From NCBI GenBank assembly GCA_913051705.1, contig CAJXCW010000001.1, forward strand, positions 1-63,311: 63,311 nucleotides of DNA, given 5' to 3'. Positions 1,816 to 60,155 of the stretch are shown here, piece after piece; the first letter of the stretch is position 1; each line of letters opens with the position of its first letter. Made by a program: the position numbers and the translations under genes. The notes beneath the pieces were generated by a model that was given only the letters and a program-made list of their open reading frames with translations, was not told where the DNA came from and searched no databases. This stretch comes from an uncultured bacterium (lineage in GTDB: Bacteria; JAAXHH01).

Positions 1816-1914
1816 GTGCTTTGTACTTTGTACTTTGTAAAAAGATATGCCGAATGATAACCATGGCTCTATGATGTGAATCTATCAAAGTACAAAGTAC
1901 AAAGCACAAAGCAC
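1816..1914. repeat. Perfect 22-bp inverted repeat built from ACAAAGY heptamers, 48-nt spacer
   Basis: 1816-1837 GTGCTTTGTACTTTGTACTTTG is the exact reverse complement of 1886-1907 CAAAGTACAAAGTACAAAGCAC. The right arm carries one extra unit, to 1914. Lies in the divergent parA/adh gap. Confidence 0.9.
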
Positions 1915-2024
1915 TATTTGGAATTGACAATCCCTGAAACCGTGGTACATTCCATGAAATAAGGGCGGAGTTCTGAACCCTTCATCCTGAGTATAACTCG
2001 GCATCCATTCTGAAAGGACCCTCT

Positions 2025-3014
2025 ATGAAGGCTGGGCAGATTATTGCGCCCGAGCTGATCGAGATCGTGGAAGCGGAACGGCCTGACCTGGCGTTGGAAA
2101 AATCCGATCCGAGTGCTCTGAAGGACAAAGTGCTGGTACGTACCGTCAACGCTGCGGTATGCGGCAGTGATCATCTGTTGTTCATGGGAAACGGTACATA
2201 TCCGGCGCCGGTTGGGATGTCATTGCATGAGAGCATCGGTATTATTGAAAGATCGTGGACCGACGGATGTAAGGAAGGCGACCTGGTGCTGGCTTTACCG
2301 ACTTCATCGAACGCCATGGCCGAGTATTTCATGGGATTAGGCTCCTCTGTTGTGCCGTTACCGGACGGCGTGCCTCAGGAACAACTATTGATGGCCCAGC
2401 CCCTCGGCACCGTCATCTACTGTTTAAAGCGGCTTGGCCACTGGTTCAACGCCGAGGTCGCCATAGTCGGTCAGGGGCCGATGGGACTGTTGTTCACCAC
2501 CATGATGCGTAATATGGGCGCCTCATTGATTATCGGCATTGACCAGCACGATAATCGACTGGAAGCGGCAAAGCAGATGGGTGCGACGCACACGGTAAAC
2601 ATCTCCGATACAGACCCGATAGAGGCGGTCACCGAGATTACCGGGGGCCGGCTGGCGGACCTGGTCATAGAAGTGGTCGGTGAAGAAGATTCGTTCAATC
2701 TTTGTATACAGTTAGCACGCCGAAAAGGGCATTTCATCAATTTCGGCGTCCCTCGCAAAACGCAGTATACGGCGGATATATTTGAACTGTTTCGGAGAAA
2801 TCTACAACTGACGACGTCCGTAGGCCCTGATATTCACATCGATTTCAAAAGCGCCATGCAGATGATTGGTGAGAAACGAGTTGACCTGGCGCCTATGATC
2901 TCTCACAAACTGCCTTTCGCCAGATCTCAAGAAGCTTTCGAATTGGCTACAAAGCGAAAGGGAGAATGTATCAAGATCGTGGTGGATTTTGAGGAAAAAA
3001 GAATCGTGCGGTAA
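2025..3014 (+). CDS. Zn-dependent medium-chain dehydrogenase (threonine/sorbitol dehydrogenase-like)
   Basis: 329 aa. Catalytic Zn motif AVCGSDHLLF, LHESIG, Rossmann motif VGQGPMGL. No structural-Zn Cys cluster is visible. Confidence 0.8.
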   Translation: MKAGQIIAPELIEIVEAERPDLALEKSDPSALKDKVLVRTVNAAVCGSDHLLFMGNGTYPAPVGMSLHESIGIIERSWTDGCKEGDLVLALPTSSNAMAEYFMGLGSSVVPLPDGVPQEQLLMAQPLGTVIYCLKRLGHWFNAEVAIVGQGPMGLLFTTMMRNMGASLIIGIDQHDNRLEAAKQMGATHTVNISDTDPIEAVTEITGGRLADLVIEVVGEEDSFNLCIQLARRKGHFINFGVPRKTQYTADIFELFRRNLQLTTSVGPDIHIDFKSAMQMIGEKRVDLAPMISHKLPFARSQEAFELATKRKGECIKIVVDFEEKRIVR

Positions 3015-3039
3015 TCAATCAATCGCAGGAGTGGAAAAT

Positions 3040-4899: not shown

Positions 4900-4906
4900 G
4901 AATATC

Positions 4907-5003
4907 GGCAGGTGGGCAGGTAGGCAAGTGGGCAAAAGACCAAGACAAGGGTGACCATGTTACCTGCCCACCTGCCTACCTGCCTACTTGCCTACCTGCC
5001 TAC
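4907..5003. repeat. Imperfect inverted microsatellite pair (GGCAGGTR / CCTGCCYA octamers)
   Basis: 4907-4933 GGCAGGTGGGCAGGTAGGCAAGTGGGC against 4963-5003 (CCTGCCCA CCTGCCTA CCTGCCTA CTTGCCTA CCTGCCTA C). Several pairing registers of 11-15 bp. Fills the gap between the SBP stop and the permease start. Confidence 0.8.
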
Positions 5004-5011
5004 TTTTGCCT

Positions 5012-7424: not shown

Positions 7425-7532
7425 AATGGTAATTTGATGGTTGGAGTGATAAATTTTAATGGAATAGGCAACAAATCAGATCGATTATCCGACATTTCAA
7501 TTGCGTAATCATCCGATGGTCTTTAATCTTGT

Positions 7533-7590
7533 CAATCAACAAATCACCAAATCACCAAATCACCAAATCACCAAATCAACAAATCCAAAC
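7533..7590. repeat. Tandem octamer array (CACCAAAT x4, flanked by CAACAAAT variants)
   Basis: CAATCAACAAATCACCAAATCACCAAATCACCAAATCACCAAATCAACAAATCCAAAC, ending 3 nt before the oppD-like ATG. It is translated only in the spurious ORF extension beginning at 7501. Confidence 0.9.
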
Positions 7591-7593
7591 AAC

Positions 7594-8565
7594 ATGCTGC
7601 TTCAGGTAAATAATCTAAAAACATATTTTGATACGGATGAAGGGGTCGTCAGGGCTGTGGATGGAGTCAGCTTTGAGATCGACGAGGGTAAAACGCTGGG
7701 CATTGTCGGGGAATCGGGGTGCGGAAAAAGTATGACGGCCTATTCGATCCTTCGGTTGATCCCCCAACCACCGGGACGCATCGCCGGTGGGGAGATCCTG
7801 TTCGATGGCACCAATCTGCTCACCCTGCCGGATGAGCAGATTCGGGCAATTCGGGGTAATGATATTGCCATGATTTTTCAGGAGCCGATGACCTCTTTGA
7901 ATCCGGTGTTTACCATAGGAGATCAGATCGCTGAGGTCATCCAACTACATCGCAAGGCAGACCGACAGACGGCCTGGAAGCGGAGTATCGAGCTGTTGGA
8001 GATGGTGGGCATTCCGTCGCCTGAAGAACGGGTGAAGAGCTATCCTCATGAACTCAGTGGTGGGATGAGGCAACGAGCAATGATCGCCATGGCCATTTCC
8101 TGCGACCCCCGGCTTTTAATAGCTGACGAGCCTTCTACGGCGCTGGATGTCACGATTCAAGCCCAGATTCTCGATGTACTCCGACGGTTGCAGAATGAAC
8201 TCGGGATGGCACTTATCCTGATTACCCACGATCTGGGGGTGGTCGCTGAGATGGCACACGACGTCCTGGTCATGTATGCCGGCGAGGCGGTCGAACAGGC
8301 GGATGTAACCTCTCTGTTCGCCCGACCGCACCATCCCTATACCCGGGGTCTTCTGAATTCGGTGCCGACCCTGAACATGGAAGAAGAACAGCTGCCGACC
8401 ATCGAAGGCACGGTCCCGGACCCGACATATTATCCGCAGGGATGCCGTTTCGCCCCGCGGTGTGACTTTGTCGTAGACGCATGCGGTCAAGCGCAATCGT
8501 TACAGGCCGACGCCGGTCATCTGGTACGATGCAGTGAGTGGAAGCGGATTATAGATATTGAGTGA
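7594..8565 (+). CDS. Oligopeptide/dipeptide ABC transporter ATP-binding protein (OppD-like)
   Basis: Start at [12 protein letters not shown]. Walker A GESGCGKS, signature LSGGMRQR, Walker [14 protein letters not shown]-terminal oligopeptide-type extension HPYTRGLL...CRFAPRC. Confidence 0.9.
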
Positions 8566-8687
8566 TTTGGTGATTTGGTGATTGAAAGGCAACAGCAAAT
8601 CAACAAAAAGCAAAGCGAGCGAAGCGCGTTCTAATACTGCCTCGAAGAGGCGTTCATTAAATCAACAAATCAACAAATCAACAAATT
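8563..8687. repeat. Imperfect inverted microsatellite pair (ATTTGGTG / CAACAAAT octamers)
   Basis: 8563-8584 TGATTTGGTGATTTGGTGATTG overlaps the oppD-like stop. 8659-8687 is (AAATCAAC)x3. There is one mismatch per unit between the arms. The left arm is the exact reverse complement of part of the 7533-7590 array. Confidence 0.7.
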
Positions 8688-9697: not shown

Positions 9698-9707
9698 TAG
9701 TCCTTAT

Positions 9708-9769
9708 GTACTTGGTACTTCGTACTTTGGGAACACCAGACAAAGCACCAGGTACAAAGCACTAAGTAC
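9708..9769. repeat. Imperfect inverted heptamer pair (GTACTTN / ACAAAGC family)
   Basis: GTACTTGGTACTTCGTACTTTGG (9708-9730) against CCAGACAAAGCACCAGGTACAAAGCACTAAGTAC (9736-9769), 11 nt after the oppF-like stop. Same unit family as 1816-1914 and 60123-60155. Confidence 0.6.
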
Positions 9770-9771
9770 CT

Positions 9772-10805
9772 TTAAGGATTCTCCATAATCACCCGATTGA
9801 CCATGGCAATCAGGTCGGCAAGCTGGAACGGTTTGTACATATAGTAATTCCCGGTTCCCTCGACGAATTTCTCCGTTTCCAGATTCGCTGTATCACCTGC
9901 GATAAAAATAATCCGTCGGCTGAGCCGGTCGTCAAAACTCTTGCAATATGTCGCCATTATGGTGGAGAAAGGTATAATCGACAGATGGCGTCTGCAATGC
10001 TGTCCGGGCTGTATGCGTGATGTGATGCAGGATCTCTCTGGTATCTATCGGTCGGACCAGAGGGCGGGCTGTTTCATGGAGACTATCCAGAACCCGGGCT
10101 TCATGTCATATCTGTTTTGTGTCGGCGCCCATACCCGCGATGTTCCGTCTTAAAAGATAGGGGCCTCTCTGTTGCATCGTTTTCCACGCATCCTTCGCCT
10201 CCTTTTCGGAAGGCAGAGCCTGTTTCAATTTCGATACGGTGGCCTGCGTCCACTCTTTCAAGCCCTTGACATCATTGTCACCGAGACCGAACAGGACGAG
10301 AAAGGGTTCAAGCGCTTCGAGGTCATACTGCGCTCCGAAAGGCGGCGTATAGGCCACTTTATTTGCCAGGTATATACAACCGGCCAGATCGAGTGAGGCT
10401 GTTATATGCAAGGGCTGATGATGTAGCCAGACCGCCTCACCCATGGCAGCGGGCAATCGATTTTTTTCAAGGATCTGTCGTCCTGCTACAGCGTGATCTA
10501 TACCAAAAACCCGACGTTCTTCTTTAATGCGCTCTGAGGAGGCCGATTATCGGCCATATTCCTTGGGATGAAGGTGGGCCAGCGCCAATTTACCAATATC
10601 ATGCAGCGGTCCGGTGAATCCGGCCGGACTGCTGGGCGTAAGCCCGGCCTGCGTGGCCAGTTCCTGCGCCAACAAACGACAGGTGACGGCGTGTCGCCAG
10701 AAGACATCCATATCGAAAAATGAAGCGGCGATGGGGGCAGAGCAGAAGGTAGATCGGCAGGGCGAGATCAGACAAATCGGTGGACTGGATTTCGTGACGT
10801 GCCAT
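9772..10805 (-). pseudogene. Disrupted HDOD-domain / receiver-like signalling gene
   Basis: One minus-strand frame reads ...FWRHAVTCRLLAQELA...GPLHDIGKLALAHLHPKEYGR-TAA(10547-10549)-SASSERIKEERRVFGIDHAVAGRQILEKNRLPAAMGEAVWLHHQPLH...TKQI-TGA(10106-10108)-HEARVLDS...NGDILQEF. A 1-nt shift at a T4 run (plus-strand A4 at 9934-9937) then leads into DDRLSRRIIFIAGDT...YMYKPF. The N-terminal HDOD part is missing or frameshifted. Confidence 0.6.
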
Positions 10806-10949
10806 TCTTTTCGTCCACGCTCCCCTATATTACGTAACCAGGGAGGTTATAAAATACAGGCTTAGATTTTCAGAGCATAGGCGGAATATACAATATGTGG
10901 GGTTCAAACTCGTCTCAGGATGCTATATCCTGATTTTCTCGTCAAGCAA

Positions 10950-11215
10950 AATCATTGCTGAATAGGGAAGCCGCGGGTGATTTCCTTTGCCTTGGCGAAT
11001 ATAACGTCTTTTCTTACCTGCATCATGATTTCAGGTCAAACGCTTTTATCGTCATGGAATACGTCGAGGGCGCCGCGTTCGCTGAACGCATACCTTCAGG
11101 TAGGATGGATAATACGGGTGGTTTTCCATGTTGAATTCCTATAGGTCCTAACAGAAAGTGAACACGCATCGTTAAAGACATGCCCGAAGGCCTTAATCGC
11201 GCATCCATTCGGCCC
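10950..11215 (+). pseudogene. Possible relic of a Hanks-type Ser/Thr protein kinase
   Basis: The frame containing 11048-11071 reads ...LHHDFRSNAFIVMEYVEGAAFAERI (kinase hinge-like IVMEYVEG) and then stops. A VNTHR-stop segment follows in another frame, resembling HRD. There is no start codon and no intact ORF. Confidence 0.25.
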
Positions 11216-11350
11216 AAACTTGCTATGGATCCCCGTTTAAAGCCTGCGGGGATGACGGTTTTGTGACCTGATCAGCCTCATTTTTTAAAAGGGATAGGTA
11301 GCTATATTCTGCATCCTGCATCCAAATCAACCTCAACCCGGAAATACATC

Positions 11351-13650: not shown

Positions 13651-13660
13651 CAGATATATT

Positions 13661-13790
13661 GGTGAATGGTGATTGATGAATGGTGATTGGAAAGTCATCT
13701 CTCCATCCTAAAAACCTGTCAAGTAGAACTTGATTCTCTATTCCTCTTCTTTTCAATCACCAATCACCATTCAGTCAATCACCATTCACC
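13661..13790. repeat. Inverted heptamer microsatellite pair (GGTGAWT / AWTCACC), 29 bp with one bulge
   Basis: 13661-13690 GGTGAATGGTGATTGATGAATGGTGATTGG against 13761-13790 CAATCACCATTCAGTCAATCACCATTCACC, plus an extra CAATCAC unit at 13754. Spacer about 63 nt. The right arm is translated only in the spurious extension from 13687. Confidence 0.9.
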
Positions 13791-13806: not shown

Positions 13807-14454
13807 ATGACCTTAGGCGTCCAGACCGCCTGTTTAGAGCAATATCCGCTTGGGGAAGTCCTGGATTTTCTACAGAAGACGGGAATCGGCCAGGTCGAAC
13901 TGATCAGCGGTCATCTGATGTACAAAACCCCGGCGTATTGCGAAGATGTAGCTGCTGAGGTTCATGAGCGCGGTATGACGATCTCAGGATACGTGTGGGA
14001 CGGCAACGGGGCGATACCCTGGTTTCAAGGGCGGCGTTTTCGGGCAATGGAACCGGGCGTACGGCTGGTTAATGAATTTCATCCGCCCGGTGATTTCGCC
14101 AGCACACCCGAACGAGCGATCGCATTGATCGATGAGGTGGATTCACCCAACTTCACGGCCTGCCTTGATTTCTGTCATGCAGAGGTCATGGCGCCCGGCG
14201 ACGCGGAAGGGTTCATCCGCAGGCTGGGCGTCGAACGCATCGGACATATACACATTGCCGGTGGTGACAGCCATCCCCACATGCACCGGGCCGTGGGAAC
14301 CGGTGAGGTGGACGCCATTCGCCTGTTGGCCGTGCTCAGGGAAATAGGCTATGACGCCAACTACTCCCTGTGCCTGTACGGCAACCCGCTGCCCAGGCGA
14401 GCCATTCGGCAGAGCGTGGACTATCTCCGGGCAAACGGCTATTTCGTCGCATGA
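13807..14454 (+). CDS. Sugar phosphate isomerase/epimerase (xylose isomerase-like TIM barrel), short form
   Basis: Start at MTLGVQTACLEQYPL, after the repeat. LDFCHAEV and IGHIHIAGG metal-site-like motifs. 215 aa is short for the family. Confidence 0.65.
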   Translation: MTLGVQTACLEQYPLGEVLDFLQKTGIGQVELISGHLMYKTPAYCEDVAAEVHERGMTISGYVWDGNGAIPWFQGRRFRAMEPGVRLVNEFHPPGDFASTPERAIALIDEVDSPNFTACLDFCHAEVMAPGDAEGFIRRLGVERIGHIHIAGGDSHPHMHRAVGTGEVDAIRLLAVLREIGYDANYSLCLYGNPLPRRAIRQSVDYLRANGYFVA

Positions 14455-15541: not shown

Positions 15542-15801
15542 GGGAAATGGGCAGGTGGGTACTATGTAGACAGTTCCGAGCAGGAAGTTCCGAGTACGGG
15601 CGATAACACTCGGGCCTCGGAACTCAGAACTATTCTGCAGGCAGGTGTGCAGGGCTGCCGGTTTGTCATTATTAAGATAAGATAAGGTATAGACAACAGG
15701 TTTCAAATCAGAAATTTAATTGACGTGAACAGGATGGTATGAAATATTGATGGGATGCGGATGGATACCGATGTCTCACGCTATTTTCTCAGGAGTGTTC
15801 T

Positions 15802-16632
15802 ATGGATTTTTTTATCGTCAGCGGCGGTCGATTCAAACTGGACGGCGGCAGTGTCTTCGGTATTGTACCCAAACCGCTGTGGGAGAAGATACGTCCGGCG
15901 GATGAGCACAATCGGGTTGACATGAACACCAATTGTCTGCTGGTGCGTACCGGCAGCAGCCATATCCTGATCGATACCGGTTATGGCAATAAAATGGCCG
16001 AGAAGAACCGCCGTATTTACGGCATGTCGGGCACGACCATCGTAGATTCGCTGGCTGCCATCGGGGTCAAAGCGGCAGATATTGATCTGGTCATCCTGAG
16101 CCATCTTCATTTCGATCATGCGGGCGGTGCGACGGTATCGGATCTGGAAGGCCACCTGTATCCGGCTTTTCCCGAAGCAAAATATGTGGTGCAAAAAGGG
16201 GAGTGGGAAGATGCCATAAATGGTTATGCAACCATGACATCGTCCTATCTCGAAGAAAATTACGCCCCGCTTATAGATCAGAATATGTTGACCCTGTTGG
16301 ATGGAGATGTGGAGGTGTGGGATCGCATACGCGTGCAGATCACGGGCGGTCATACCCGGCATCATCAGATGGTCCTCATCGAATCCGATGAGGCGACCGT
16401 CGTGTACGCCGGTGATATATTACCCATGACCACACATCTTCGCGCCGCCTACAACATGGCGTATGATCTATTTCCCTACGACTCGATGATTCAGAAAAGT
16501 CGGGTCCTTGAACAGGCGGCTTCAGAAGGCTGGATTATCATATGGGATCATGATCCAAACGTACCGGCGGGACGTGTGTATCATGAGGGAGAGGGGAGGT
16601 ACAGGTTTGAGGCGGTAAGCTTCAAGGCGTAG
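15802..16632 (+). CDS. MBL-fold metallo-hydrolase
   Basis: 276 aa. HxHxDH motif SHLHFDHAGG, with a later GGHTRHH. Confidence 0.8.
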   Translation: MDFFIVSGGRFKLDGGSVFGIVPKPLWEKIRPADEHNRVDMNTNCLLVRTGSSHILIDTGYGNKMAEKNRRIYGMSGTTIVDSLAAIGVKAADIDLVILSHLHFDHAGGATVSDLEGHLYPAFPEAKYVVQKGEWEDAINGYATMTSSYLEENYAPLIDQNMLTLLDGDVEVWDRIRVQITGGHTRHHQMVLIESDEATVVYAGDILPMTTHLRAAYNMAYDLFPYDSMIQKSRVLEQAASEGWIIIWDHDPNVPAGRVYHEGEGRYRFEAVSFKA

Positions 16633-17939: not shown

Positions 17940-17984
17940 AGTTCCTTGAATATAACCATACAGCATGGCAATAATCAAGGAACT
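17940..17984. repeat. 10-bp perfect hairpin between the PhyH and nuclease genes
   Basis: AGTTCCTTGA (17940-17949) and TCAAGGAACT (17975-17984), 25-nt loop, no U tract. Confidence 0.6.
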
Positions 17985-21466: not shown

Positions 21467-21557
21467 GAAGCTACGAAACAACAAAACGACGAAGCTACGA
21501 ATCAAAGACAGATGGAGATATACGCCGCGTTTCGTAGCTTCGTAGCTTCGTCGTTTC
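21467..21557. repeat. Inverted octamer microsatellite pair (GAAGCTAC / GTAGCTTC), about 18-bp stem
   Basis: 21484-21501 AAACGACGAAGCTACGAA pairs with the right arm CGTTTCGTAGCTTCGTAGCTTCGTCGTTTC (21528-21557). It overlaps the stop codon of the 21556-22248 gene. Confidence 0.85.
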
Positions 21558-23970: not shown

Positions 23971-25623
23971 TCAAACCATAACATACGGCCTACCGCAAAC
24001 CATGCGCGTGCCGGCATCTGTCCTGGCGGCAGGTAACATGACAGACAGGCCCTGCTCCGCCAGATTTAAATGAGAGAAGTCAGGCGTGGTATCTTTGGGG
24101 ACAGGTTGCAGACGCACAGCCCGTCGCGCCTGCCAGAACCGGCTGAACCGTTCCACATCACAAACAGGGATAGAATGCGCCTGGGCAAACTGTATCACAG
24201 GCGTCCAAAGTGGGGCGCTATAGGTGGCGAATGAAACGGGATGGGCATTGACGCACATCATACTGGCTGTTTGACCAGCGTTGCGTTGCAAAAGTCCGGT
24301 GATCAGGTCGACGCCTTCATCCGGCGTTAAATTGAGGGACCAGTCAAACCCCTGGCCGCCCAGTGTTGTTTCATCGGAGAATTGGGTGGGAAGCTGGTAG
24401 ACCGGCAGCACGTCGCCAGTCAGGTTGGCAAACTTCATAGGCAAACCGGCGCCGTTCATATAATACCGGCCCTGCGGAAGTAAGGAAAAGCAATTGGTAT
24501 CGAAGGTGAATCCATGCCGGGCTTCGATACGCGCACCTTCGATATAACCGCTCCAGGTGATGCAGTGATTGCGTACAGACGGACTCGGAGGCTGGCCGTA
24601 GGCATCACGAAATTGTTGTATATGATCGTTCAGTGTCCGATCCCACAACGACAGGGAAGGCGGAGGCAAATCGGGGTGCACGGAGAAGTCGAAGCCCCGG
24701 CATTCCAGGTCTTCCAGCCACGCCCGATCCATGACACTATCCTTCTGTACCAGATAGAAAGTTAATCGGGCATCATACGTTTCACAGGCCTCAATCAATT
24801 GTTCAAAGTGTACCCTGGTGGACCAGTCATCATCGGATGTAAATATCAACACGGTGTCCGCCCGATCCGGGAAATACCACAGCCAGGGCAGCACCGTATC
24901 TTCCGGCCAGACGCGATGGATGAGTTCTCTCAGGAAGTGACCATGTAAATCCGCTGTAGGCCAGTCAGCTGTCCGTTCATCCTGCCACCCTTCAAACAAA
25001 TCAGACGGCCGCATCCGTTCGAACCCGGATGACCGGCAGCCGGCCAGGAGCGGGTTCCCCTGTCGGAGCAGATATACGCATTGGGCCGGATCGTAGGCGA
25101 GGACTATGATCACCCCGTTTCCTTCCGCCAGTTCTATCACCGCAGGATGCCCGGTGGGACGACCATCAAAATCGTGTAAAGGAATCGTATCGGTATGATC
25201 CTCATTTTCTGCGCCGCTATAATGCTGTATCCATCCCTTGAGCGGCAATCCGGCCTCCGGAAAACCCGCCAGCGCCACCGGCAAACGGCCATGCATCACC
25301 CCCTGATTTAACGGGGCCAGCCCGAGGGCAGCAGCCAGCGCTTCACCCGGCGCACAGCAGATCAGCCCGCCGCCGTGATAGGCAAAGTCTATCAACCACT
25401 GTACCGCCTCCGGCTCAGGATCAGCCGCACCCAGTAAAACCAGAGACCGACCCTCCAGCATTGCCGGCGTTAACGCATCCAGATAAGCGGTCTCAACATC
25501 GTTTATCCCTTCCAAATAGAGCATTTCAGCGTACGCCTTCGGTGACGAAAACCACCGGTCGGTGTTCGCTGATAGAACCAGGATGCTGGCAGGAGGAGAA
25601 TTTCGGATTTCGGATTGATTCAC
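23971..25623 (-). CDS. Hypothetical two-domain protein (possible glutamine-amidotransferase-like N-domain plus deacetylase/hydrolase-like C-domain)
   Basis: 550-aa uninterrupted ORF. VLIFTSDDDWS and HPD/NHC segments faintly resemble carbohydrate esterase folds. The annotated GTG start lies inside a heptamer repeat, so the start is uncertain. Confidence 0.45.
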   Translation of the reverse strand: MNQSEIRNSPPASILVLSANTDRWFSSPKAYAEMLYLEGINDVETAYLDALTPAMLEGRSLVLLGAADPEPEAVQWLIDFAYHGGGLICCAPGEALAAALGLAPLNQGVMHGRLPVALAGFPEAGLPLKGWIQHYSGAENEDHTDTIPLHDFDGRPTGHPAVIELAEGNGVIIVLAYDPAQCVYLLRQGNPLLAGCRSSGFERMRPSDLFEGWQDERTADWPTADLHGHFLRELIHRVWPEDTVLPWLWYFPDRADTVLIFTSDDDWSTRVHFEQLIEACETYDARLTFYLVQKDSVMDRAWLEDLECRGFDFSVHPDLPPPSLSLWDRTLNDHIQQFRDAYGQPPSPSVRNHCITWSGYIEGARIEARHGFTFDTNCFSLLPQGRYYMNGAGLPMKFANLTGDVLPVYQLPTQFSDETTLGGQGFDWSLNLTPDEGVDLITGLLQRNAGQTASMMCVNAHPVSFATYSAPLWTPVIQFAQAHSIPVCDVERFSRFWQARRAVRLQPVPKDTTPDFSHLNLAEQGLSVMLPAARTDAGTRMVCGRPYVMV

Positions 25624-25704
25624 AATTTTAAAGTTGATGTTAAATGCAGGAAAGTTCTACGTTCCAAGGGCTTTTAAATCCGAAATCCGAAATCTGCAAT
25701 CCGC
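25599..25704. repeat. Perfect 17-bp inverted heptamer pair (TTCGGAT / AATCCGA)
   Basis: 25599-25616 AATTTCGGATTTCGGATT against 25676-25693 AAATCCGAAATCCGAAAT. The right arm continues as CTGCAATCCGC to 25704. Spacer about 60 nt. Sits between the Gfo stop and the start of the 23971-25623 ORF. Confidence 0.9.
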
Positions 25705-31126: not shown

Positions 31127-31157
31127 CATGCATAAATCATCATGCATAAATCATCAT
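31127..31157. repeat. Tandem 14-mer CATGCATAAATCAT x2 in a divergent promoter gap
   Basis: Exact duplicate units at 31127-31140 and 31141-31154, followed by CAT. About 75 nt upstream of the decarboxylase ATG. Confidence 0.7.
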
Positions 31158-33346: not shown

Positions 33347-33347
33347 T

Positions 33348-33371
33348 AGGCGTACGGCGCGCCGTACGCCT
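33348..33371. terminator. Perfect 24-nt GC-rich palindrome right after the RmlC-like stop (terminator-like, no U tract)
   Basis: AGGCGTACGGCGCGCCGTACGCCT begins 2 nt after the TAA at 33344-33346. Confidence 0.5.
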
Positions 33372-33408
33372 ACACATTTCCATCCATTTACTCATATGGA
33401 GGTACATC

Positions 33409-33885: not shown

Positions 33886-34106
33886 AGGTATTTATGAATT
33901 ATGGTTTATGAATTATGATGTAGGCAATCGTTCAATAGAAGCGGAAGCCGAACTGGGTGGTCTTGAGAAGATGAGCAACTTCCTGATCGGTTTACCCCTG
34001 CTTCTGGGTGTCATTTTTTGATCCTGTTCGGGATCCTATTCCAGGAAAAAGGGGGACTTTCGTCCTCGGTGTGTCGTTGTAGGAGTAACTTCCCAAAGGA
34101 CCTCCC

Positions 34107-37310: not shown

Positions 37311-38251
37311 ATAGATCTAATACCCTTCCAAAACCCCACCACATACTGCCTACCGCTTACCGCTTACTGCTTACCGCCTACTGCCTACTGCTTACTGCCT
37401 ACTGCCTACTGCCTTCCCATCTCACCGCCCAGGAGACCGCTTCACGGGTAAAATACAAGATGTTCCAGAGCAAGGCGCTGAATCAGGAGAAACGAGGCGC
37501 GGTTTATCTGCCCGCAGGATATGATACCTCAGATAAAACCTACCCGGTCATTTATTTTCTGCACGGGCTGTTCGGTTCTGAAAACCGTTGGGAACAGCGC
37601 GGTGCAAAACCTATTGTAGATAAATTGATAGCCGACGGCACTATAACCCCGGCTATCATAGCCATCGCCGATGGCGACAATAGTTTTTATGTCAATGCAG
37701 TAAATGGTCAGGCCGCATACGAGGATTATATTATTAATGACTTCCTTCCCTATATTGAATCCACGTATCGTATTGACCCGAGACGGTCTCAACGGGCGAT
37801 AAGCGGGATATCCATGGGCGGGTTTGGATCCTTGATGCTTGGGATGCGTCATCCTGATCTGTTCTCTTCTGTAAGCGCTCATAGTGCGGTGTTGATTCCC
37901 GTGCCTCTGGATCAACTACCGCCTCGTCTTCTGCAATCCTATCAATCCCAGTTTTTCGAAGCTGTTTTTGGCAACCCGGTGGACGAAGCCCATTGGCGAC
38001 AACATCATCCTGTCGACCTCATTAATACGGCAACTGATCTGAAAACAGTATCCTGGTATTTTGATTGCGGGACGGAAGATCGGTATGGATTTCACAGGGG
38101 CGCGGCTAAATTGCACACCCTTATGGAATCTTCCGATATTCCCCATGAATACCATCTTTTCCCTGGGGGACATGGTTGGGAATATGTCCGCTCCACGTTA
38201 CACCGCTCTCTGAGCTTCCATTCCAAAAATTTCCAGATGGCTGACGAATGA
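37307..38251 (+). CDS. Esterase-family alpha/beta hydrolase (esterase D / enterochelin-esterase-like)
   Basis: ATGA overlap with the sulfatase stop. [17 protein letters not shown], nucleophile elbow GISMGGFGS. The N-terminal signal-like segment is encoded by a heptamer array. An alternative start exists at 37460. Confidence 0.75.
37345..37413. repeat. Heptanucleotide tandem array (about 9-10 units of TACYGCY) inside the 5' end of the esterase ORF
   Basis: ACTGCCTACCGCTTACCGCTTACTGCTTACCGCCTACTGCCTACTGCTTACTGCCTACTGCCTACTGCC, translated as [22 protein letters not shown]. Confidence 0.9.
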
Positions 38252-39439: not shown

Positions 39440-39524
39440 GGAGTGGAAGGGTGGGAGGGAGGATGGGAGGGTAGATGGATGGACGTAAACCTTCCACCCA
39501 TGCACCTCTCCATCCTCCCATCCC
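39440..39524. repeat. Purine-rich / pyrimidine-rich hairpin between convergent genes (GGGAGGAT / CCATCCTC units)
   Basis: 39440-39482 GGAGTGGAAGGGTGGGAGGGAGGATGGGAGGGTAGATGGATGG, a 7-nt loop, then 39490-39524 CCTTCCACCCATGCACCTCTCCATCCTCCCATCCC. Imperfect, with a 10-11-bp perfect core. Confidence 0.75.
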
Positions 39525-40267: not shown

Positions 40268-40285
40268 GGAAAACTCCTGGGAAAT

Positions 40286-40306
40286 GGTGAGTTGGTGAGT
40301 TGGTGA
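40286..40306. repeat. Tandem octamer GGTGAGTT x2.5 in the 5' leader of the DUF1080 gene
   Basis: GGTGAGTTGGTGAGTTGGTGA, 19 nt upstream (gene sense) of the ATG at 40267. Translated only in the spurious extension to 40402. Confidence 0.75.
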
Positions 40307-42073: not shown

Positions 42074-42117
42074 TTATTCTTCCCTTATCATTTCCGAGCT
42101 CCTGTATTAAATGAGAC

Positions 42118-42145
42118 CTTCCATCCTCCCATCCTTCCATCCATA
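42118..42145. repeat. Single-arm pyrimidine microsatellite (CCATCCTY units), same unit family as 39490-39524
   Basis: CCTTCCATCCTCCCATCCTTCCATCCAT, between the DUF2961 stop and the DUF4091 start. Confidence 0.75.
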
Positions 42146-45641: not shown

Positions 45642-46352
45642 TCAGTTCCCTTTCAACTTATCAATAATATCCTGCGCTTCATCCTGTGTTATTTCAGACA
45701 GATCACGACCGTAGCGCGATCTCGCCCGCTGATTCACCTGATCCTTTGTGAATTTCCGTTGGCGGGCGAGTTCAAAAATTTCTGCCAGTTGCAATTCGGT
45801 CACCTGATTTGATGGAGGTTCCGGCTCTCCCAGCAGATCATCCAAATCGTCATCTGTGACCGTCGTCTGCTTTAATTCTTCGGTAACGACGGATGTATAA
45901 TCTGAAGTCGAAGTCTCTGCTACGACATCGCTTGGTTCCGATATAACAGGTGATGGTTCTTCACTTTCAGATAGGCTTTCATCTGCGGGTACCCCGTACA
46001 ACTGGAGACCAATTCCATACAAGGTTGCCGTTTTTTTTAATGCATCGGATGCGGCTGCTTTTAGGGCGTCCCCCATGGACAGCACCATACCATCTTCGGT
46101 ATCCTGCTGAAGTTCACAGGTGCCGAATTGCTGTTTTGATACCCCTCCAGCCGTTATTTCACCCAACACCACCACATCGTCATCCAGAAATTTATGATCT
46201 ACAATTTGAAAACTCCATTCCCCATTAAATACTTCGTTCAAGCGATTTATGATGGTTGGGGTTTCAAGATAGGCGACCATCAAACCGATACTGGTGCGAC
46301 GGTGTTTGATCTGATCCGTTGGAAAAGGGCGTTTCAGGAGTTCCAGATTCAT
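45642..46352 (-). CDS. Rad52/22-family (DdrA/Sak-like) single-strand annealing protein
   Basis: Start at MNLELLKRPFP (AAGGAG 7 nt upstream). VAYLETPTIINRLNEVFNGEWSF and GDALKAAASDALKKTATLYGIGLQLYG match the Rad52 core. Acidic linker plus a small helical C-terminal domain. Confidence 0.65.
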   Translation of the reverse strand: MNLELLKRPFPTDQIKHRRTSIGLMVAYLETPTIINRLNEVFNGEWSFQIVDHKFLDDDVVVLGEITAGGVSKQQFGTCELQQDTEDGMVLSMGDALKAAASDALKKTATLYGIGLQLYGVPADESLSESEEPSPVISEPSDVVAETSTSDYTSVVTEELKQTTVTDDDLDDLLGEPEPPSNQVTELQLAEIFELARQRKFTKDQVNQRARSRYGRDLSEITQDEAQDIIDKLKGN

Positions 46353-46399
46353 CGTATTTCTCCTTAGATGGCCTACGGAGCAACTTCCCGTACACCCTC

Positions 46400-47671
46400 T
46401 TAAGGTCGGTCCGACGAACCGACCTGGCGTACACGATCCTGCCATAGTAGCTTCAGTTGTTCCAGCTCCAGTTTGTGTTGTTCCATCTCCATCTCATGTT
46501 CCAGTATCATTTGTTGAAGCATATCCAGGTTCCGAAGCGCTTCATCCTCATCAACCACTCTCTCCTCGGGTGGTTCTTCCAGGAGACGGGGCTGCGGCAC
46601 CAGAACAGTATGCGTGATATTTTCCAGATCGTCACGTAAATATTTAATCTCTATCTTTGAACCGATGGGCAGGGTGATCACGAATTCGGCCAGCATAATC
46701 GGGTGGTCCATGGAAATGCCGTTGATTTCAAGTAGCCAGTCTCCCTTTTGCAATCCCGCTTTTTCCGCAGGACTATCCGGAAAGACATCAGTAATTTCCA
46801 TACCATCACTCTTACCAACCACCACATTCAACGCGGCGTTGATATTAACGCTGTCCCATATTTTTTCTACATACACCCCCAACCAGCTTCGACGGATTTC
46901 ACCATATTCGATCAAATGCCGGGCGAATGTTTTGACTCTGTTTATCGGGATAACGGAGACCACCCCGGATCCCTCGCTGGATATTATACCACCGGATGGA
47001 ATTGTTTTATTACCGGTTTCTCCTACGATCAAGCCAATAAGTCGTCCTTCGAGAGAAAATGCGGCGCCACCTGTAAACCCCCTGGAAAGTATGGCGCTGA
47101 CCTGGAGCAGGACATCTTCTTTTCTGATTCCGTTGACGATACCGAGTGAGATGGAAGACGGTGTGCCGTAGGCGTTACTTAGAAGTAAAACCCAGGCCCC
47201 TGGCCGTGCATCATCAGAGTCGCCTAGCAAAACCGGGGAGACCGAGACGCTGTCGACTCGAATGACCGCAATATCGGATAGTAAATCGACCCCGACTATT
47301 TTTCCTGAACGATATTGTCCGTCCGGAAAGCTGACCAGAATATCATAGGCATGAGTAACGACGCCGGCCGTCGTAAGAATATAGCCGTCCTTATGTAAAA
47401 CTACACCCGACCCCACGGCACGGGTCCAATCCGTAATAATTTGCCCATTGATATTGGTCACATGCTTCCGCTGAACGATTACAGTGGCGACAGAATGCTC
47501 GACTCGTTTCACGAGAGCAATCATTTCTTTTTCCATCATGTTGAGTGTTGTCGCCGGCTGGGCTGTAACACGTAAAAACCCGCCTGACAGCAACAAGCCC
47601 AGCGTAAAAAAACACACAAAAGCTTTGCCGTGGCGGGTAGATGGAAAAACTGTATTCGATGGGGTGATCAT
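46400..47671 (-). CDS. HtrA/DegP-like trypsin-fold plus PDZ protein with degenerate catalytic triad and coiled-coil tail
   Basis: Signal/anchor AFVCFFTLGLLLSGGFL. GSGVVLHKDGYILTTAGVV (Gly where TNxHVV has His), SDIAVIRVD (Asp kept), GFTGGAAF (Thr where GNSGG has Ser). PDZ region VFPDSPAEKAGLQKGDWLLEING. Confidence 0.75.
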   Translation of the reverse strand: MITPSNTVFPSTRHGKAFVCFFTLGLLLSGGFLRVTAQPATTLNMMEKEMIALVKRVEHSVATVIVQRKHVTNINGQIITDWTRAVGSGVVLHKDGYILTTAGVVTHAYDILVSFPDGQYRSGKIVGVDLLSDIAVIRVDSVSVSPVLLGDSDDARPGAWVLLLSNAYGTPSSISLGIVNGIRKEDVLLQVSAILSRGFTGGAAFSLEGRLIGLIVGETGNKTIPSGGIISSEGSGVVSVIPINRVKTFARHLIEYGEIRRSWLGVYVEKIWDSVNINAALNVVVGKSDGMEITDVFPDSPAEKAGLQKGDWLLEINGISMDHPIMLAEFVITLPIGSKIEIKYLRDDLENITHTVLVPQPRLLEEPPEERVVDEDEALRNLDMLQQMILEHEMEMEQHKLELEQLKLLWQDRVRQVGSSDRP

Positions 47672-49490: not shown

Positions 49491-51176
49491 CTATTCTGCC
49501 GGCATATACTCACTAATATCATGAATCGTATATTGATATCCCTGTTCAGTCAGGAAAAGCTGCCGATTAACCGCATAGTCCTGATCGAGCGTATTCCGCG
49601 TTATAATGGAATAAAAAATGGCGGAAGATCCATCGACTTTGGGTCTTAGAATACGACCAAGTCGTTGGGCTTCCTCCTGCCTGGATCCGAAGGTGCCGGA
49701 TATCTGGATGGCCACATTGGCATCAGGCAGGTCGATTGCAAAATTAGCCACTTTAGACACCACCAGCCGTTTAATTTCACCAGAGCGGAATTTTGCATAT
49801 AATTCAATTCTGGTTTGAAGGGGGGTACTACCCGTGATGAGTGGAAGATTGAAAATGGCCGCGACTTCTTTGATCTGCTTCAAATACTGGCCAATAATCA
49901 AAATCTGATCAGTGGGGTGTTGTGCAAGTAACAAGCGGATCATATCCGCCTTACGGTCATTTTCAGATGCGATACGAAATTTTTCACGCCGATTGGCCAC
50001 AGCGTAGGGCATACGTCGTTCCTCAGGCAGATCAATCCGAATTTCTCGACAGTATGCTTCTGCAATCCATCCCTGACGTTCCAGCAACTTCCAGGGCATA
50101 TCGTACCGCTTTGGGCCGATTAAACTGAATACATCACTTTCACGACCGTCTTCCCGGATTAATGTGGCTGTCAGACCGAGTCGACGTCGGGCTTGAATTT
50201 CCGACGTGAACCGGAACACCGGTGCCGGAAGCAGATGAACTTCATCGTAAATGATGAGTCCCCACCCTTCCCGATTGAAAAGATCGAAATGTTTAAATTC
50301 ATCAGTCTTGCTTTTGCGGTACGTCAGAATCTGGTATGTGGCCAGGGTCACGGGTTTTATCTCTTTGACCACTCCGGAATACTCTCCAATGTCGTCACTT
50401 GTCAGCGTAGTCTTGTCAAGCAGCTCATCACGCCACTGGCGAAGGGCCACCGTGTTTGCCGAAAGAATTAATGTCTGGCATTGTAGGGCGGCCATAGCCC
50501 CTATGGCCACAACCGTTTTTCCTGCCCCGCAAGGTAAAACGATCACGCCGTTTCCACCACGCAACGCCCCGTTCATATGAAAGGCGCGAACGGAATCAGA
50601 TTGATAATCTCTCAATGAAAAAGGGAGCCCATCTTGTGTCGATTCCCGCAATTGAAAGGCAAGTGGGGTGCCCGTGACGTACCCTGCCAGATCTTCTACC
50701 GGGAACCCGACTTTAATCAAGGCTTGTTTTATATGACCCCGAAAACGATCTCCGACAAAAACGCTTCGTTCATCAATTTTTCCGATCAGAAATTTATTTA
50801 CGGAAGGCAATCCTGACACCTCTGCCATCAACACCGGATCGTCCGTTTCAAGAATAAGTTTGTCGTCCCTTTTTATCAAACGAATTTGTCCGTATCGGGT
50901 AATGAATTCAGTAATTTCCCGGCTTATATTCTGCGGCACTTCATATTTACTTAAGCGATTCAACGTAACCAGGATAGTCTCTGCATCCAATCCTGAAGCA
51001 GCGGCATTCCAAAGAGAAAGCGGAGAAATTCGGTAGGTGTGAATATGTTCCGGTGATTTTTCGAGTTCGGCAAATCGGGCTAACACATCCCGGGCATCTT
51101 CGTATTGAGGGTGGTCAGCTTCCAGAAGGACGGATCGATCACTTTGTACAATCAATGGATTTTGCATGTGAGGCAC
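49491..51176 (-). CDS. XPB/ERCC3/Ssl2-type SF2 DNA helicase
   Basis: 561 aa. N-terminal damage-recognition-like LIVQSDRSVLLEADHPQYEDARDVLARFAELEKSPEHIHTYRISPLSLWNAAASG, Walker A LPCGAGKT, DEVH box, TATLIRED. Confidence 0.87.
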   Translation of the reverse strand: MPHMQNPLIVQSDRSVLLEADHPQYEDARDVLARFAELEKSPEHIHTYRISPLSLWNAAASGLDAETILVTLNRLSKYEVPQNISREITEFITRYGQIRLIKRDDKLILETDDPVLMAEVSGLPSVNKFLIGKIDERSVFVGDRFRGHIKQALIKVGFPVEDLAGYVTGTPLAFQLRESTQDGLPFSLRDYQSDSVRAFHMNGALRGGNGVIVLPCGAGKTVVAIGAMAALQCQTLILSANTVALRQWRDELLDKTTLTSDDIGEYSGVVKEIKPVTLATYQILTYRKSKTDEFKHFDLFNREGWGLIIYDEVHLLPAPVFRFTSEIQARRRLGLTATLIREDGRESDVFSLIGPKRYDMPWKLLERQGWIAEAYCREIRIDLPEERRMPYAVANRREKFRIASENDRKADMIRLLLAQHPTDQILIIGQYLKQIKEVAAIFNLPLITGSTPLQTRIELYAKFRSGEIKRLVVSKVANFAIDLPDANVAIQISGTFGSRQEEAQRLGRILRPKVDGSSAIFYSIITRNTLDQDYAVNRQLFLTEQGYQYTIHDISEYMPAE

Positions 51177-51353
51177 AATAGACTCCGGGTCGTTTTCTTT
51201 TAATCATGGCAATCTCCAAACAAGAATCAGCAACCCAATATAGCTCCTTTTCATCCCTGCCTCAAGTAAAACCTCATTTCAAACGGCATAATGATGCCCA
51301 TGATATGATGCTTTACCCTATATAAATGATGTTACACCGCTACCTCCTATATC

Positions 51354-51421
51354 GCACGCAGGAGAGAACTCCTTCCCGTCAGTAGAACAGTATATCCTGG
51401 TAGGAGCTCTCTCCTGCGTGC
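51354..51421. repeat. Strong 19-bp hairpin (one mismatch, 30-nt loop) between the GT9 stop and the XPB start
   Basis: GCACGCAGGAGAGAACTCC (51354-51372) against GGAGCTCTCTCCTGCGTGC (51403-51421). Not a microsatellite. No U tract. Confidence 0.75.
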
Positions 51422-51468
51422 AATAGAAGCCAAAATACGCCATGTAGGCGTAACAATCAGTTGTTCTT

Positions 51469-59600: not shown

Positions 59601-60033
59601 GCGACTTGCTGCAAAACAGGAAGCGTTGCGTAAAAGTCTGGAACAGCTCCAACGGGAACAGAAACAACACGCTCAACTTCTAGGGCGGCTGGATGAAGTA
59701 GAGCGGGAGATGGAAGAAACCGTAAAAGCGTTGCAGCAGAATCAGGTCAATCCTCAATTAATGGAAAGGCAGCAACGCATTCTATCCAGGCTCCTTGATG
59801 CCTCGCGTTCCATGAGGGAAAGAGATCGGAACAATAAACGTAAGGCAATGCCAGGTGAGAATCTGACAGGCCGGCCGTCACCTGGCCCCTTGCCAGGTGA
59901 GTTGATGGAGTTCGACCGAACCTTGCGCGATGATATCCTGCGAAGCGTACGCGACGGCACCTATCCACAAGAATATGAAGAACTCATCCGGGCGTATTTC
60001 CGGGCCCTTTCAGATGCCCCAAGAGAAAATTAA
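56623..60033 (+). CDS. Large membrane-anchored protein with beta-rich domains and a ~600-aa Q/E/M-rich coiled coil (DUF4175-like)
   Basis: GTG start. Two N-terminal TM segments. ATDDFGISSMNLVY motif. Long heptad-like Q/E/M region. Conserved-looking tail YPQEYEELIRAYFRALS. Confidence 0.5.
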   Translation: MATSSTSSVWYALRDRLHALRLRDRKVTLIQGALISGTVIVLLIMLMAGLEGWFRLAPPGRLSLVVIGLIITAGVLIQRCVRILWHTVSDDALARKVDRHYPELYDRVTMTLQLWRQYGRRDTTSPSLLEAAITASAASTEAVDFTAADRRYRLPQAAQLFGGALIFSSLILILLFNPLYGALHRLVHPLTDFPVPQNTFVVVRPGHADVASGGQVTVTAEITGDMPDQATIRLYTDDSIWKSIDLSSIRSSSSFSYTIRDINERLQYEIEAGDALSPRFQISVVNRPRVASLHLTYRYPAYTNLAPRTTTEGGDIVALKGTRVAFELEASQVLTTAQIDMVGQDNLLSLKVSDRQANGAISIKTDQIYRIILRNQEGRANIDPPQYRITVLPDRMPDVRIVSPGKDSNLTENMLVSLLISATDDFGISSMNLVYQKTTDGEIQRKALPVDKKVTTLTVPYVWDVSNLGLIPEDVMSYYVELFDNDTVSGPKRVVSQTFTLRFPSISEIYDQLNSTQDQQVADIEDMLKNQEEAQKRLEELNRDLEQKQRQEELTGEKEALSWEQKKDLESLMDAQEKMADDLMKAADAMEQAMEQLEQQDMQSMELIEKMNQLRQLFQEIATPELLKAMQELKQAMNDLDNRMIKESLENYEMEQEAFMKRLERSLAMLKRMRTEQQMMAAVRKSEDLLERQEELQYATQNQKQDPAQDTRESLAGKQQNLKQDTESLQQDLEALAQSMEEHENMPTDDIRNAAESMEQRNLPQQMERISQQMMNGQMSQASQGQQQAVQQLSNLSQQLQEAQEQKQNEQMQEVAAEMRQAMHQLVELSQNQESLNGRTNQPAGRDSRMQDLSEDQQSLMKGASQVADQLVSTSQKSFFISPEIGRALGETLNRMQSAGNDLAERNRGTASQQQMEAMEALNQTVLSLQQAMKNMNASGSASGMMEMMQQLQSMAQQQAGLNEQMNQMMSEGQGQGEQSGEKMSLEQRAKMARLAAKQEALRKSLEQLQREQKQHAQLLGRLDEVEREMEETVKALQQNQVNPQLMERQQRILSRLLDASRSMRERDRNNKRKAMPGENLTGRPSPGPLPGELMEFDRTLRDDILRSVRDGTYPQEYEELIRAYFRALSDAPREN

Positions 60034-60037
60034 AACT

Positions 60038-60155
60038 CTGTGCTTCGTTCATAGTGCTTTGTGGTTTGTCAAGGCTAAGTGTCTATAAAAAAATGAGGAT
60101 AGGCTCCACGATGAACAAAAATAACAAAGTGCAAAGTACAAAGCACAAAGTACAA
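60038..60155. repeat. Imperfect inverted pair of the ACAAAGY heptamer family
   Basis: 60038-60070 CTGTGCTTCGTTCATAGTGCTTTGTGGTTTGTC against 60123-60155 AACAAAGTGCAAAGTACAAAGCACAAAGTACAAC. Sits at the 5' end of the TPR gene. Confidence 0.55.

Follow-up and report, generated by a model that had tools for sequence, protein, structure and literature searches.

The DNA examined here, the 63,311-nt contig CAJXCW010000001.1 of an uncultured bacterium ("the window" below is this full stretch, and all positions refer to it), carries in its intergenic gaps tandem arrays of 7- or 8-nt units, many of which face an array of the complementary unit in the same gap. These elements are not a new class. They are members of the group formed by long simple sequence repeats (LSSR), the short tandemly repeated repetitive (STRR) sequences of cyanobacteria and the heptamer arrays of Xanthomonas; the lineage is a new one for them, and the diversity of the units is unusual. 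The explanation that we favor, with a probability of about 60%, is that the arrays are LSSR of the STRR/Xanthomonas kind made by slippage, that selection filters them by their placement, and that they yield intercistronic RNA hairpins.

Arrays were called with Tandem Repeats Finder and palindromes with an inverted-repeat tool, and overlapping rows were merged. In the window, 38 rows merged into 25 arrays with a period of 7, 8, 14 or 16. By comparison, 50 dinucleotide-preserving shuffles of the window gave a mean of 2.5 such arrays and a maximum of 9. Arrays with periods of 9 to 11 occurred at the shuffle rate; the enrichment was restricted to periods 7, 8, 14 and 16. When one pipeline was applied throughout, the array density per 100 kb was 36 in the window, 32 in a sister species and 5.5 in other bacteria (3.0 Mb, 164 unrelated loci), the window thus being about 7-fold above the 3 Mb of other bacteria. 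Start codons were corrected on the basis of N-terminal sequences and of gene calls on conspecific contigs, after which non-coding DNA amounted to 10.8% of the window. It held 23 of the 25 arrays; the remaining two, in coding DNA, were low scoring and at the chance rate. The elements with their spacers occupied 18.6% of the non-coding DNA, and nine gaps held an array together with a complementary array at a spacing of 7 to 75 nt. The initial annotation, made from the sequence alone, had listed most of these arrays and pairs, and each was recovered at or within a few bases of the position given. The shuffle comparison that it proposed showed the arrays to be enriched, and the conspecific gene calls and N-terminal sequences agreed with its view that the arrays generate false N-terminal extensions of open reading frames (ORFs).

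At least seven unit types were present in the 63 kb, with more on conspecific and sister contigs, and octamers were as common as heptamers. No single unit or small set of units dominated the 63-kb window, as would be the case for STRR1-3 or GGGAATC. The units had been described as locus specific. Their diversity stands, but most are not unique: ACAAAGY and CAAATCAM recurred at three loci each and CCATCCTY at two, CAAATCAC at 7534 and GTGATTTG at 8562 are exact reverse complements of each other, the 8659 unit was found again on a conspecific contig (L162), and the 13658 and 40285 units are related. The three ACAAAGY elements have the unit as the sole thing in common. Heptamer and octamer LSSR and STRR are recognized by a unit of 5 to 11 nt standing in tandem about three or more times, beyond chance, by confinement to non-coding DNA and by variation in unit number, and all of these were found. 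The elements were as follows, with copy numbers after the unit.

1813-1914, no strand assigned: paired element; left arm TTTGTRC x3.9 (1813-1839), 46-nt unique spacer, right arm CAAAGYA x4.1 (1886-1914). Arms 1813-1837 and 1886-1910 pair over 25/25 bp (inverted-repeat tool); RNA -40 and DNA -28 kcal/mol, z -7 to -9. Situated in the divergent gap between parA and adh, it ends 10 nt before a promoter-like site at 1924-1951.
4907-5003, plus strand: paired element in the gap that separates the ABC substrate-binding-protein gene (stop at 4899) from the permease gene (ATG at 5012); GGCAGGTR x3.5, 26-nt spacer, TACCTGCC x5.4. Arms 4907-4934 and 4965-4992 are 89% complementary over 28 nt; RNA -61 kcal/mol, z -7.5.
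7428-7585, plus strand: A/C-rich array CAAATCAC x6.5 at 7534-7585, whose end is 7 nt short of the oppD-like ATG (7593), with a decayed G/T-rich partner, TGGTAATTTGATGGTTGGAGTGAT, at about 7428-7450 after the upstream stop.
8562-8686, plus strand: paired element; GTGATTTG x2.8, 73-nt spacer, CAAATCAA x3.5. The left arm overlaps the stop codon at 8565, and the right arm, from 8659, ends 6 nt before ATG 8693; the arms have one fixed mismatch per unit, in all units.
9708-9769, plus strand: imperfect paired element that follows the second ATPase gene's stop; GTACTTS x2.9, 12-nt spacer, ACAAAGCACCAAGT x2.1; RNA -22/-26 kcal/mol, z -3 to -5.
13658-13790, plus strand: paired element; TGGTGAW x4.4, 63-nt spacer, CAATCAC/CATTCAC x5.1, ending 16 nt before ATG 13807, which has a GGGGAGG ribosome-binding site. 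Arms 13661-13690 and 13760-13790 pair over 30 bp with one bulge; RNA -53 kcal/mol, z -9.
15573-15631, no strand assigned: weak paired element with a 14-nt unit, AGTTCCGAGCAGGA and CTCGGAACTCAGAACT, in a 260-nt divergent gap.
21467-21557, minus strand: paired element GAAGCTAC / TTCGTAGC between two minus-strand genes, the sole A/C-first element of the window. Arms 21475-21501 and 21531-21557 are 85% complementary over 27 nt.
25600-25703, minus strand: paired element; ATTTCGG x2.4, 59-nt spacer, AAATCCG x4.0. Arms 25600-25616 and 25677-25693 pair over 17/17 bp.
31127-31157, no strand assigned: direct array of period 14, CATGCATAAATCAT x2.2, in a divergent gap.
33890-33919, plus strand: direct array, TTTATGAATTATGG x1.9 or ATTTATG x4.3, beginning 5 nt past a stop codon.
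37344-37414, plus strand: single C-rich array, TACYGCC x10; it follows the sulfatase stop (37310) and precedes the probable esterase start (about 37454), the esterase domain beginning at residue 55 of the extended ORF.
39448-39523, no strand assigned: paired G-rich/C-rich element, GGGAGGAT and CCATCCTCCC, filling a convergent gap. Arms 39457-39483 and 39493-39519 are 78% complementary; RNA -51 kcal/mol.
40285-40306, minus strand: single array, TCACCAAC x2.8 on the sense (minus) strand, ending 17 nt before a probable ATG with an AGGAG ribosome-binding site.
42117-42142, minus strand: single array, ATGGRAGG x3.2 on the sense (minus) strand, starting about 15 nt past the upstream stop.
60047-60155, plus strand: imperfect paired element; G/T-rich arm of the GTGCTTYG type beginning about 13 nt past stop 60033, 53-nt spacer, ACAAAGY x4.6 ending 5 nt before ATG 60161. 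Arms 60047-60068 and 60132-60153 are 77% complementary; RNA z -2.9, DNA z -1.3.

The arrays at 31127 and 33890 are additional to those first listed. Of the arrays that had been called single armed, those at 37344, 40285 and 42117 are real as such, but that at 7534 has a decayed partner.

We then examined the folding of the paired gaps. Folded as RNA, they gave energies of -22 to -61 kcal/mol with z scores of -3 to -10, in line with the earlier proposal that each can form a long hairpin. Folded as single-stranded DNA, they gave z scores of -3.5 to -8.7, except for 60034-60160 (z -1.3, not significant). The stems were of 17 to about 30 bp. Besides the two perfect stems and the stem with one bulge, the pairs reported by the inverted-repeat search were 77 to 89% complementary; 8562-8583 with 8659-8686 and 9708-9727 with 9740-9769 pair imperfectly, were unreported by that tool and were assigned by folding. 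A comparison of sense and antisense RNA energies, which differ by G-U asymmetry, gave no consistent direction (three sense, two antisense, one tie) and therefore no support for RNA-specific pairing. Rfam covariance models produced no match at gathering thresholds across the whole window, and a tRNA scan of it was also empty.

The elements are not classical terminators. A scan of the window for the Rho-independent terminator consensus recovered none of them, and they had no U tract apart from one chance TTTT. Rho-independent terminators likewise place a stable hairpin after stop codons, but the window elements have stems of 17 to about 30 bp, loops of up to 75 nt and no U tract, and they also directly precede co-transcribed genes. 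The sole convincing textbook terminator of the window, at 45613-45594 on the minus strand, is the one that had been singled out before; other terminator-like matches were at chance level.

To describe pairing and placement, we used a wider data set, in which 346 non-coding arrays from the window lineage and from 120 loci of other phyla were pooled. Among these, 129 (about 37%) were in complementary-unit pairs within 200 nt, with spacers of 3 to 177 nt (median, 46 nt). Where neighboring arrays had related units, their arrangement was inverted 65 times and direct 4 times. The G/T-rich arm was 5' in 46 of all 65 pairs (46:19, p = 0.001; 21:7 without AAAGTAC-like units), and in nine pairs of the window, with one (21467) reversed. 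Since a G/T-5' polarity is identical on both strands, it is by itself uninformative on gene direction. In co-directional gaps, however, the pairs were G/T first by 36:11 (p = 0.0003), as against 10:8 in other gaps. Unpaired arrays of co-directional gaps were G/T rich or neutral when they lay within 25 nt of the upstream stop (32:24) and A/C rich when they lay more than 25 nt from it, which was taken as start proximal (58:27; Mann-Whitney p = 0.0006). No polarity bias of arrays was found in convergent or divergent gaps (19:22 and 32:33, respectively), and arm length showed no asymmetry relative to the direction of transcription (23 against 21, Wilcoxon p = 0.92). In the window, A/C-rich arrays end 5 to 16 nt before the ATGs at 5012, 7593, 8693, 13807 and 60161. 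An A/C-rich array is free of ATG, GTG and TTG and of Shine-Dalgarno-like G runs, and both kinds of sequence are present in its complement; the simplest reading of the placement rule is that it reflects selection on the transcribed leader.

The rule is also independent of G-quadruplex (G4) potential, because most window units have no G runs, as in TTTGTRC, GTGATTTG, ATTTCGG and GAAGCTAC. When at least four runs of at least three G per array were required, only 39448-39483 qualified, and no other array did. This bears on the possibility that the elements act as DNA, as cruciforms, G4s, i-motifs or protein-binding arrays that affect supercoiling, replication or promoter access. The single-stranded DNA folds, the G tracts of the 39448 element, the G4 formed in vitro by Xanthomonas and Nostoc units, and the 1813 element that adjoins a promoter would all fit such a role. 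We nevertheless consider it quite improbable, as most window units are unable to form G4, spacers of 26 to 75 nt disfavor cruciform extrusion, the unit differs by locus so that no single binding protein explains all of them, and the polarity bias is concentrated in co-transcribed gaps. Within the first 20 kb, no other site matches a sigma-70-like promoter as well as the one next to the 1813 element, 1924-1951 (TTGACA, a 16-nt spacing and TACATT, with a TG extension).

Next, variation within the species was followed on 14 independent contigs with identical flanking proteins, which cover six elements. The 1813 left arm had three or four units. The 7534 array occurred with 4.5, 5.5 or 6.5 units, and these three alleles also differed in their variant units. 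Three alleles were also found for the 8562/8659 element, one with one unit more in the left arm and one fewer in the right, and another with one fewer in the right arm only. At 15573, one conspecific contig was short of one 14-nt unit. At 4907 and 13658 (at 13658 in both arms), the arms carried point differences that were uncompensated. The two arms slip independently, and each arm homogenizes its own variant. Because both arms are periodic and can pair in any register, the hairpin survives slippage without an arm-matching mechanism, on this time scale. The initial annotation had considered the creation of matched arms unexplained; no special mechanism is needed to keep them matched, and no compensatory change between the arms was found. 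Its view that the elements are locally generated and remodeled agrees with the unit-number polymorphism, with arrays in one species that correspond to a single copy in a relative, and with the unique spacers.

The spacers of 8562 and 13658 had a single orientation in all conspecific contigs covering them (three and seven, respectively). An invertible promoter (inverton) was rejected on this basis and because the spacers of the window are only 7 to 75 nt long. The arrays at 7534-7585 (CAAATCAC x6.5) and 8562-8585 (GTGATTTG x2.8), inverted relative to each other and 1 kb apart, bracket the first ATPase gene; this gene, too, had one orientation in all conspecific contigs.

The second arm of a pair could also have come from template switching, by inverted duplication or quasi-palindrome correction, with the arms kept alike by copying; the hairpins would then be purely mutational. 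Quasi-palindrome template-switch mutation is established in Escherichia coli. The 65:4 ratio of inverted to direct neighbors would be accounted for in this way, the GGCAGGTR hairpin of a sister species (L168) is a near-perfect mirror palindrome with two units per arm, and the 13658 element mirrors a 14-nt higher-order pattern (permutation p = 0.065). Yet over 61 informative pairs the complementarity of the arms was no better than that of permuted unit order (28 versus 25, Wilcoxon p = 0.34), which leaves no signature of arm-to-arm copying, and within the species the arms vary in copy number independently and fix different variants. We therefore regard this origin as unlikely. Long palindromes that are not tandem also occur in gaps of the window (51350-51425, 17940-17984 and 33347-33372): one has 27-nt arms that are 89% complementary (RNA -41/-51 kcal/mol), one has a 20-nt stem, and one is a perfect palindrome of 26 nt starting at the last stop-codon base of a dTDP-sugar epimerase-like gene. 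Such ordinary palindromes could be seeds for the growth of repeat hairpins.

The arrays do not reach the length of a sequencing read, and at least 14 independent assemblies, made from different samples, recovered them. Short-read contigs of this and a sister species (L166, L301 and L427) terminate inside arrays. The arrays break contigs and are not products of assembly, a possibility that had been raised and that their sharing by independent assemblies dispels. An assembly artifact, or a mobile family of the type of MITEs (miniature transposable elements bounded by inverted repeats) or of paired repetitive extragenic palindromes (REPINs), would be in keeping with the inverted termini, with units recurring at several loci and with the frequent breaking of short-read contigs at arrays. 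We give these explanations almost no weight: besides the independent assemblies, like arrays stand in megabase contigs of other phyla, and the elements have unique spacers and no target duplications. Second copies of the spacers were found neither in the window nor in 31 kb of close relatives. No transposase or REP-associated tyrosine transposase (RAYT, IS200/IS605-like) domain was present among the window ORFs scanned against Pfam. A MITE was rejected on the unique internal spacers and the absence of a flanking duplication at the insertion/deletion boundary of the 1813 element, and a REP/REPIN family because, apart from the short units, neither arms nor spacers of different loci have sequence in common. 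CRISPR arrays, whose direct repeats measure 23 to 47 nt and alternate with unique spacers of like length, were rejected as well, the units being 7 to 8 nt, contiguous and with an inverted partner, and the Pfam scans of the window ORFs showing no cas domains. With the unique spacers and the negative terminator scan, these exclusions agree with those made at the outset.

The comparison was then extended to related species. At the gap between the substrate-binding-protein and permease genes, L168, whose substrate-binding protein is 83% identical, has a hairpin with GGCAGGTR, two units per arm and a different loop, and L427 (85%) also has a GGCAGGTR array, in which the contig ends; one element is thus retained across at least three species. 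In contrast, the 1813 element is absent from both L168 and L427, although the promoter flank 1924-1951 is conserved in both; the upstream flank is conserved in L168 only. The PhyH-gap hairpin at 21467-21557 corresponds in L168 to a single copy of GAAGCGACGAAAC with no hairpin, and conversely GTTTCAA is present in 4.4 copies in L168 and in one copy in the window; L168 has its own arrays elsewhere. Four contigs at 73 to 76% identity (L290, L292, L293 and L428) have the same operon with gaps of 7 to 55 nt and no 7- to 8-nt arrays, and no arrays were found near purD on two contigs with 68 to 69% PurD identity (L082 and L083). Given these gains and losses and the array-free 73 to 76% clade, the arrays are a trait that a narrow clade has acquired recently and in which individual arrays are born and lost locally at a fast pace. 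L290 has, by a scaffold gap after the ABC operon (16319-16547), tandem units of about 21 nt (GGCCACTGAAGGTCAGGTCCC), a different repeat kind in the same gap.

It is possible, though we do not think it probable, that the elements are purpose-built RNA hairpins, kept by selection for mRNA stability, for translation coupling or insulation, or for termination without a U tract, the repeats being merely raw material. Their arms abut stops and end 5 to 16 nt before starts, the polarity peaks in gaps that are co-directional and co-transcribed, the window has almost no textbook terminators, Xanthomonas arrays are transcribed, and the hairpin between the substrate-binding-protein and permease genes is present in three species despite different loops and arm lengths. 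However, the same operon of close relatives is hairpin free with gaps of 7 to 55 nt, sister species lack one element, which in the window stands in a divergent gap, upstream of a promoter, arm polymorphisms are uncompensated and one element is mismatched in every unit, sense RNA has no consistent energy gain over antisense RNA, and spacers with a median of about 46 nt are unlike functional terminator loops.

Under the slippage explanation that we favor, replication slippage would both create arrays and drive their turnover in non-coding DNA, the lineage being prone to slippage, and selection would chiefly filter where they persist. Units of 7 or 8 nt shift the frame, so that arrays would be excluded from reading frames. 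In co-directional gaps, the G/T-rich arm would come to stand after the stop and the start-codon-free A/C-rich arm before the next start. The hairpin in the transcript may then serve as a barrier to 3' exonucleases that protects the upstream message, and may partially insulate, mask or couple the downstream cistron. The hairpin-free sister operons, the element upstream of a promoter and the uncompensated arm changes speak against the view that most copies are indispensable. Among the elements, the one between the substrate-binding-protein and permease genes is the strongest candidate for having kept a function; it occupies the position where REP hairpins stabilize the malE and hisJ messages in enterobacteria.

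Several points weigh against this explanation. Slippage alone leaves the 65:4 inverted excess unexplained; the excess needs either a mutational route, such as template switching or the growth of a short palindrome, or selection for pairing. The mirror order of unit variants, at 28 versus 25, was no better than that of permuted units. The contrast in polarity between co-directional and other gaps was not significant (Fisher p = 0.13). The GGCAGGTR element, kept in three species, hints at selective retention rather than mere tolerance. The data analyzed comprise 63 kb of this genome and about 90 kb of close relatives.

The initial annotation had considered the elements unexplained by standard feature types, but heptamer and octamer arrays and their inverted pairs have already been published (PMC4692102, PMC2670836). 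The closest parallel is with the GGGAATC arrays of Xanthomonas campestris and X. citri and the GGGGAYT arrays of Nostoc PCC 7120, which are intergenic tandem heptamers of typically about four units (Rehm et al. 2015, PMC4692102). Xanthomonas has 70 to 75 convergent inverted array pairs per genome, with the G-rich array, on the coding strand, 0 to 50 nt past the stop and the C-rich strand just upstream of starts (PMC4692102). These Xanthomonas arrays are transcribed, and their length and sequence vary between close species while the position is often kept; G4 formation in vitro was shown for the Xanthomonas and Nostoc units, and function was left open (PMC4692102). A Nostoc preprint likewise left the role of heptamer repeats unresolved. 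The window shares with these genomes the intergenic heptamer arrays and also both the inverted pairs and the stop/start placement rule. It differs in that one G4-capable unit dominates in Xanthomonas and Nostoc, whereas the window has at least seven unit types, octamers among them, that are mostly not G4 capable, and in its host, which belongs to an unrelated lineage.

According to what is reportedly described by Mazel et al. in 1990, STRRs are few genome-wide unit families in heterocystous cyanobacteria; the window, unlike these, is not cyanobacterial and has many different units. A cyanobacterial host was rejected, since highly iterated palindrome 1 (HIP1) occurs once in the window, at chance level. 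Cyanobacterial STRR hairpins lie between hupS and hupL and upstream of hoxW, where transcript stability or translational coupling has been proposed (PMC2670836). Common to both are 7-nt intergenic tandem units, some of which form hairpins between co-transcribed genes. For LSSR, the survey by Mrazek (2007), as summarized in PMC4679880, describes a heptamer excess, among repeats with units of 5 to 11 nt, in scattered lineages, an avoidance of coding DNA and a proposed origin by polymerase slippage; inverted pairs and stop/start polarity, both present in the window, are unmentioned in that summary. The TAACTGA direct repeats of the marine Beggiatoaceae lie immediately 5' of start codons in a fixed orientation, with a proposed translational role (PMC4679880). 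They differ from the window arrays in having a single unit, which contains stop codons, and in being inverted in 1 of 170 sets.

REP sequences, bacterial interspersed mosaic elements (BIMEs) and REPINs also form intergenic hairpins, for example after the substrate-binding-protein genes of ABC operons, where they act as barriers to mRNA decay. REP sequences, however, are conserved imperfect palindromes of 20 to 40 nt, present in hundreds of copies and mobilized by RAYTs, whereas the window elements have no shared sequence, unique spacers and tandem arms.

Similar arrays were found well beyond this lineage. The exact (CAAAGTA)n pattern occurred in more than 120 GTDB species, including many Pyrinomonadaceae (Acidobacteriota), Bacteroidota, Akkermansia and a Clostridium, and the 8-kb loci around the matches were rich in other 7-nt arrays, many with an inverted partner. 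ACAAAGY was rejected as a special cross-phylum unit, having 54 viral-contig loci compared with 11 and 59 for two scrambled heptamers of the same composition. In metagenome-assembled genomes of soil Pyrinomonadaceae, with megabase contigs, GTGCTTT x12 faces CAAAGCA x18 at 4411-4669 of L241 (CAVWZW010000005.1), and ACGCAAAG x4 faces TCTTTGCG x4 at 2304-2412 of L248; this family looks richer still in the paired-array architecture than the window lineage. One may ask whether complementary tandem-repeat modules, each made of a stop-proximal G/T-rich array, a spacer and an A/C-rich array ahead of the next start, are a general cross-phylum device, whose placement rule comes from a conserved RNA-level mechanism. 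We put this forward as a tentative and rather doubtful proposal. A slippage-tunable hairpin would then keep a leader that is poor in G and free of start codons hidden up to the arrival of the upstream ribosome, and would set the expression ratio of neighboring cistrons independently of G4 formation, evolving through unit number. A G-poor leader is a potential Rho loading site.

The host itself was placed by its proteins as an uncultured marine bacterium of the Fibrobacteres-Chlorobi-Bacteroidetes (FCB) group. Its PurD is at most 68 to 69% identical to that of any GTDB species representative, the nearest named groups being Zixibacteria (65%) and Latescibacteria (58%), and proteins identical to those of the window were present on Tara Oceans and other marine metagenome contigs. 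A genome search with a 1,136-aa window protein found no relative, and a decarboxylase search returned horizontally scattered homologues only. The genes of the window include parAB, an opp/dpp-type ABC operon, four PhyH paralogues, a sulfatase, GH123, DUF2961 and DUF3500 genes, purD and murC.

Other features of the window were noted beside the arrays. After the second ATPase gene, 9698-11350 is a 1.6-kb stretch with no intact gene, in which the conspecific calls are three minus-strand fragments (137 aa with HATPase_c, 112 aa and 99 aa); these suggest a decayed sensor histidine kinase. The xylose-isomerase-like TIM-barrel gene at 13807-14454 is missing 180 nt (60 codons, in frame) compared with a conspecific contig (L295), with the deletion point near 14054-14060 and a 6-nt junction microhomology; the missing stretch reflects either a deletion allele that occurs naturally or a join made in assembly. 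Genes for a Rad52/Rad22-family, Erf-like single-strand annealing protein (45642-46445, minus strand) and an XPB/ERCC3-like helicase (49491-51176, minus strand) are near each other, and the textbook terminator at 45613-45594 follows the former. Rad52/Erf-like single-strand annealing proteins are mostly phage borne.

Placing the elements in their class prevents their being misread as a new element, as coding sequence or as CRISPR- or REP-like. In practice, such arrays fragment short-read assemblies and mislead start-codon calling. The architecture and polarity published for Xanthomonas and Nostoc are extended here to a marine FCB-group lineage, to Pyrinomonadaceae and to other groups, and the fact that the rule holds for units unable to form G4 argues against G4 formation as the unifying principle. 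The function of heptamer arrays is a question dating from 1990, for which array-rich species beside array-free sister species provide a natural comparison. This comparison could reveal the underlying replication or repair trait or the effect of the hairpins on operon expression.

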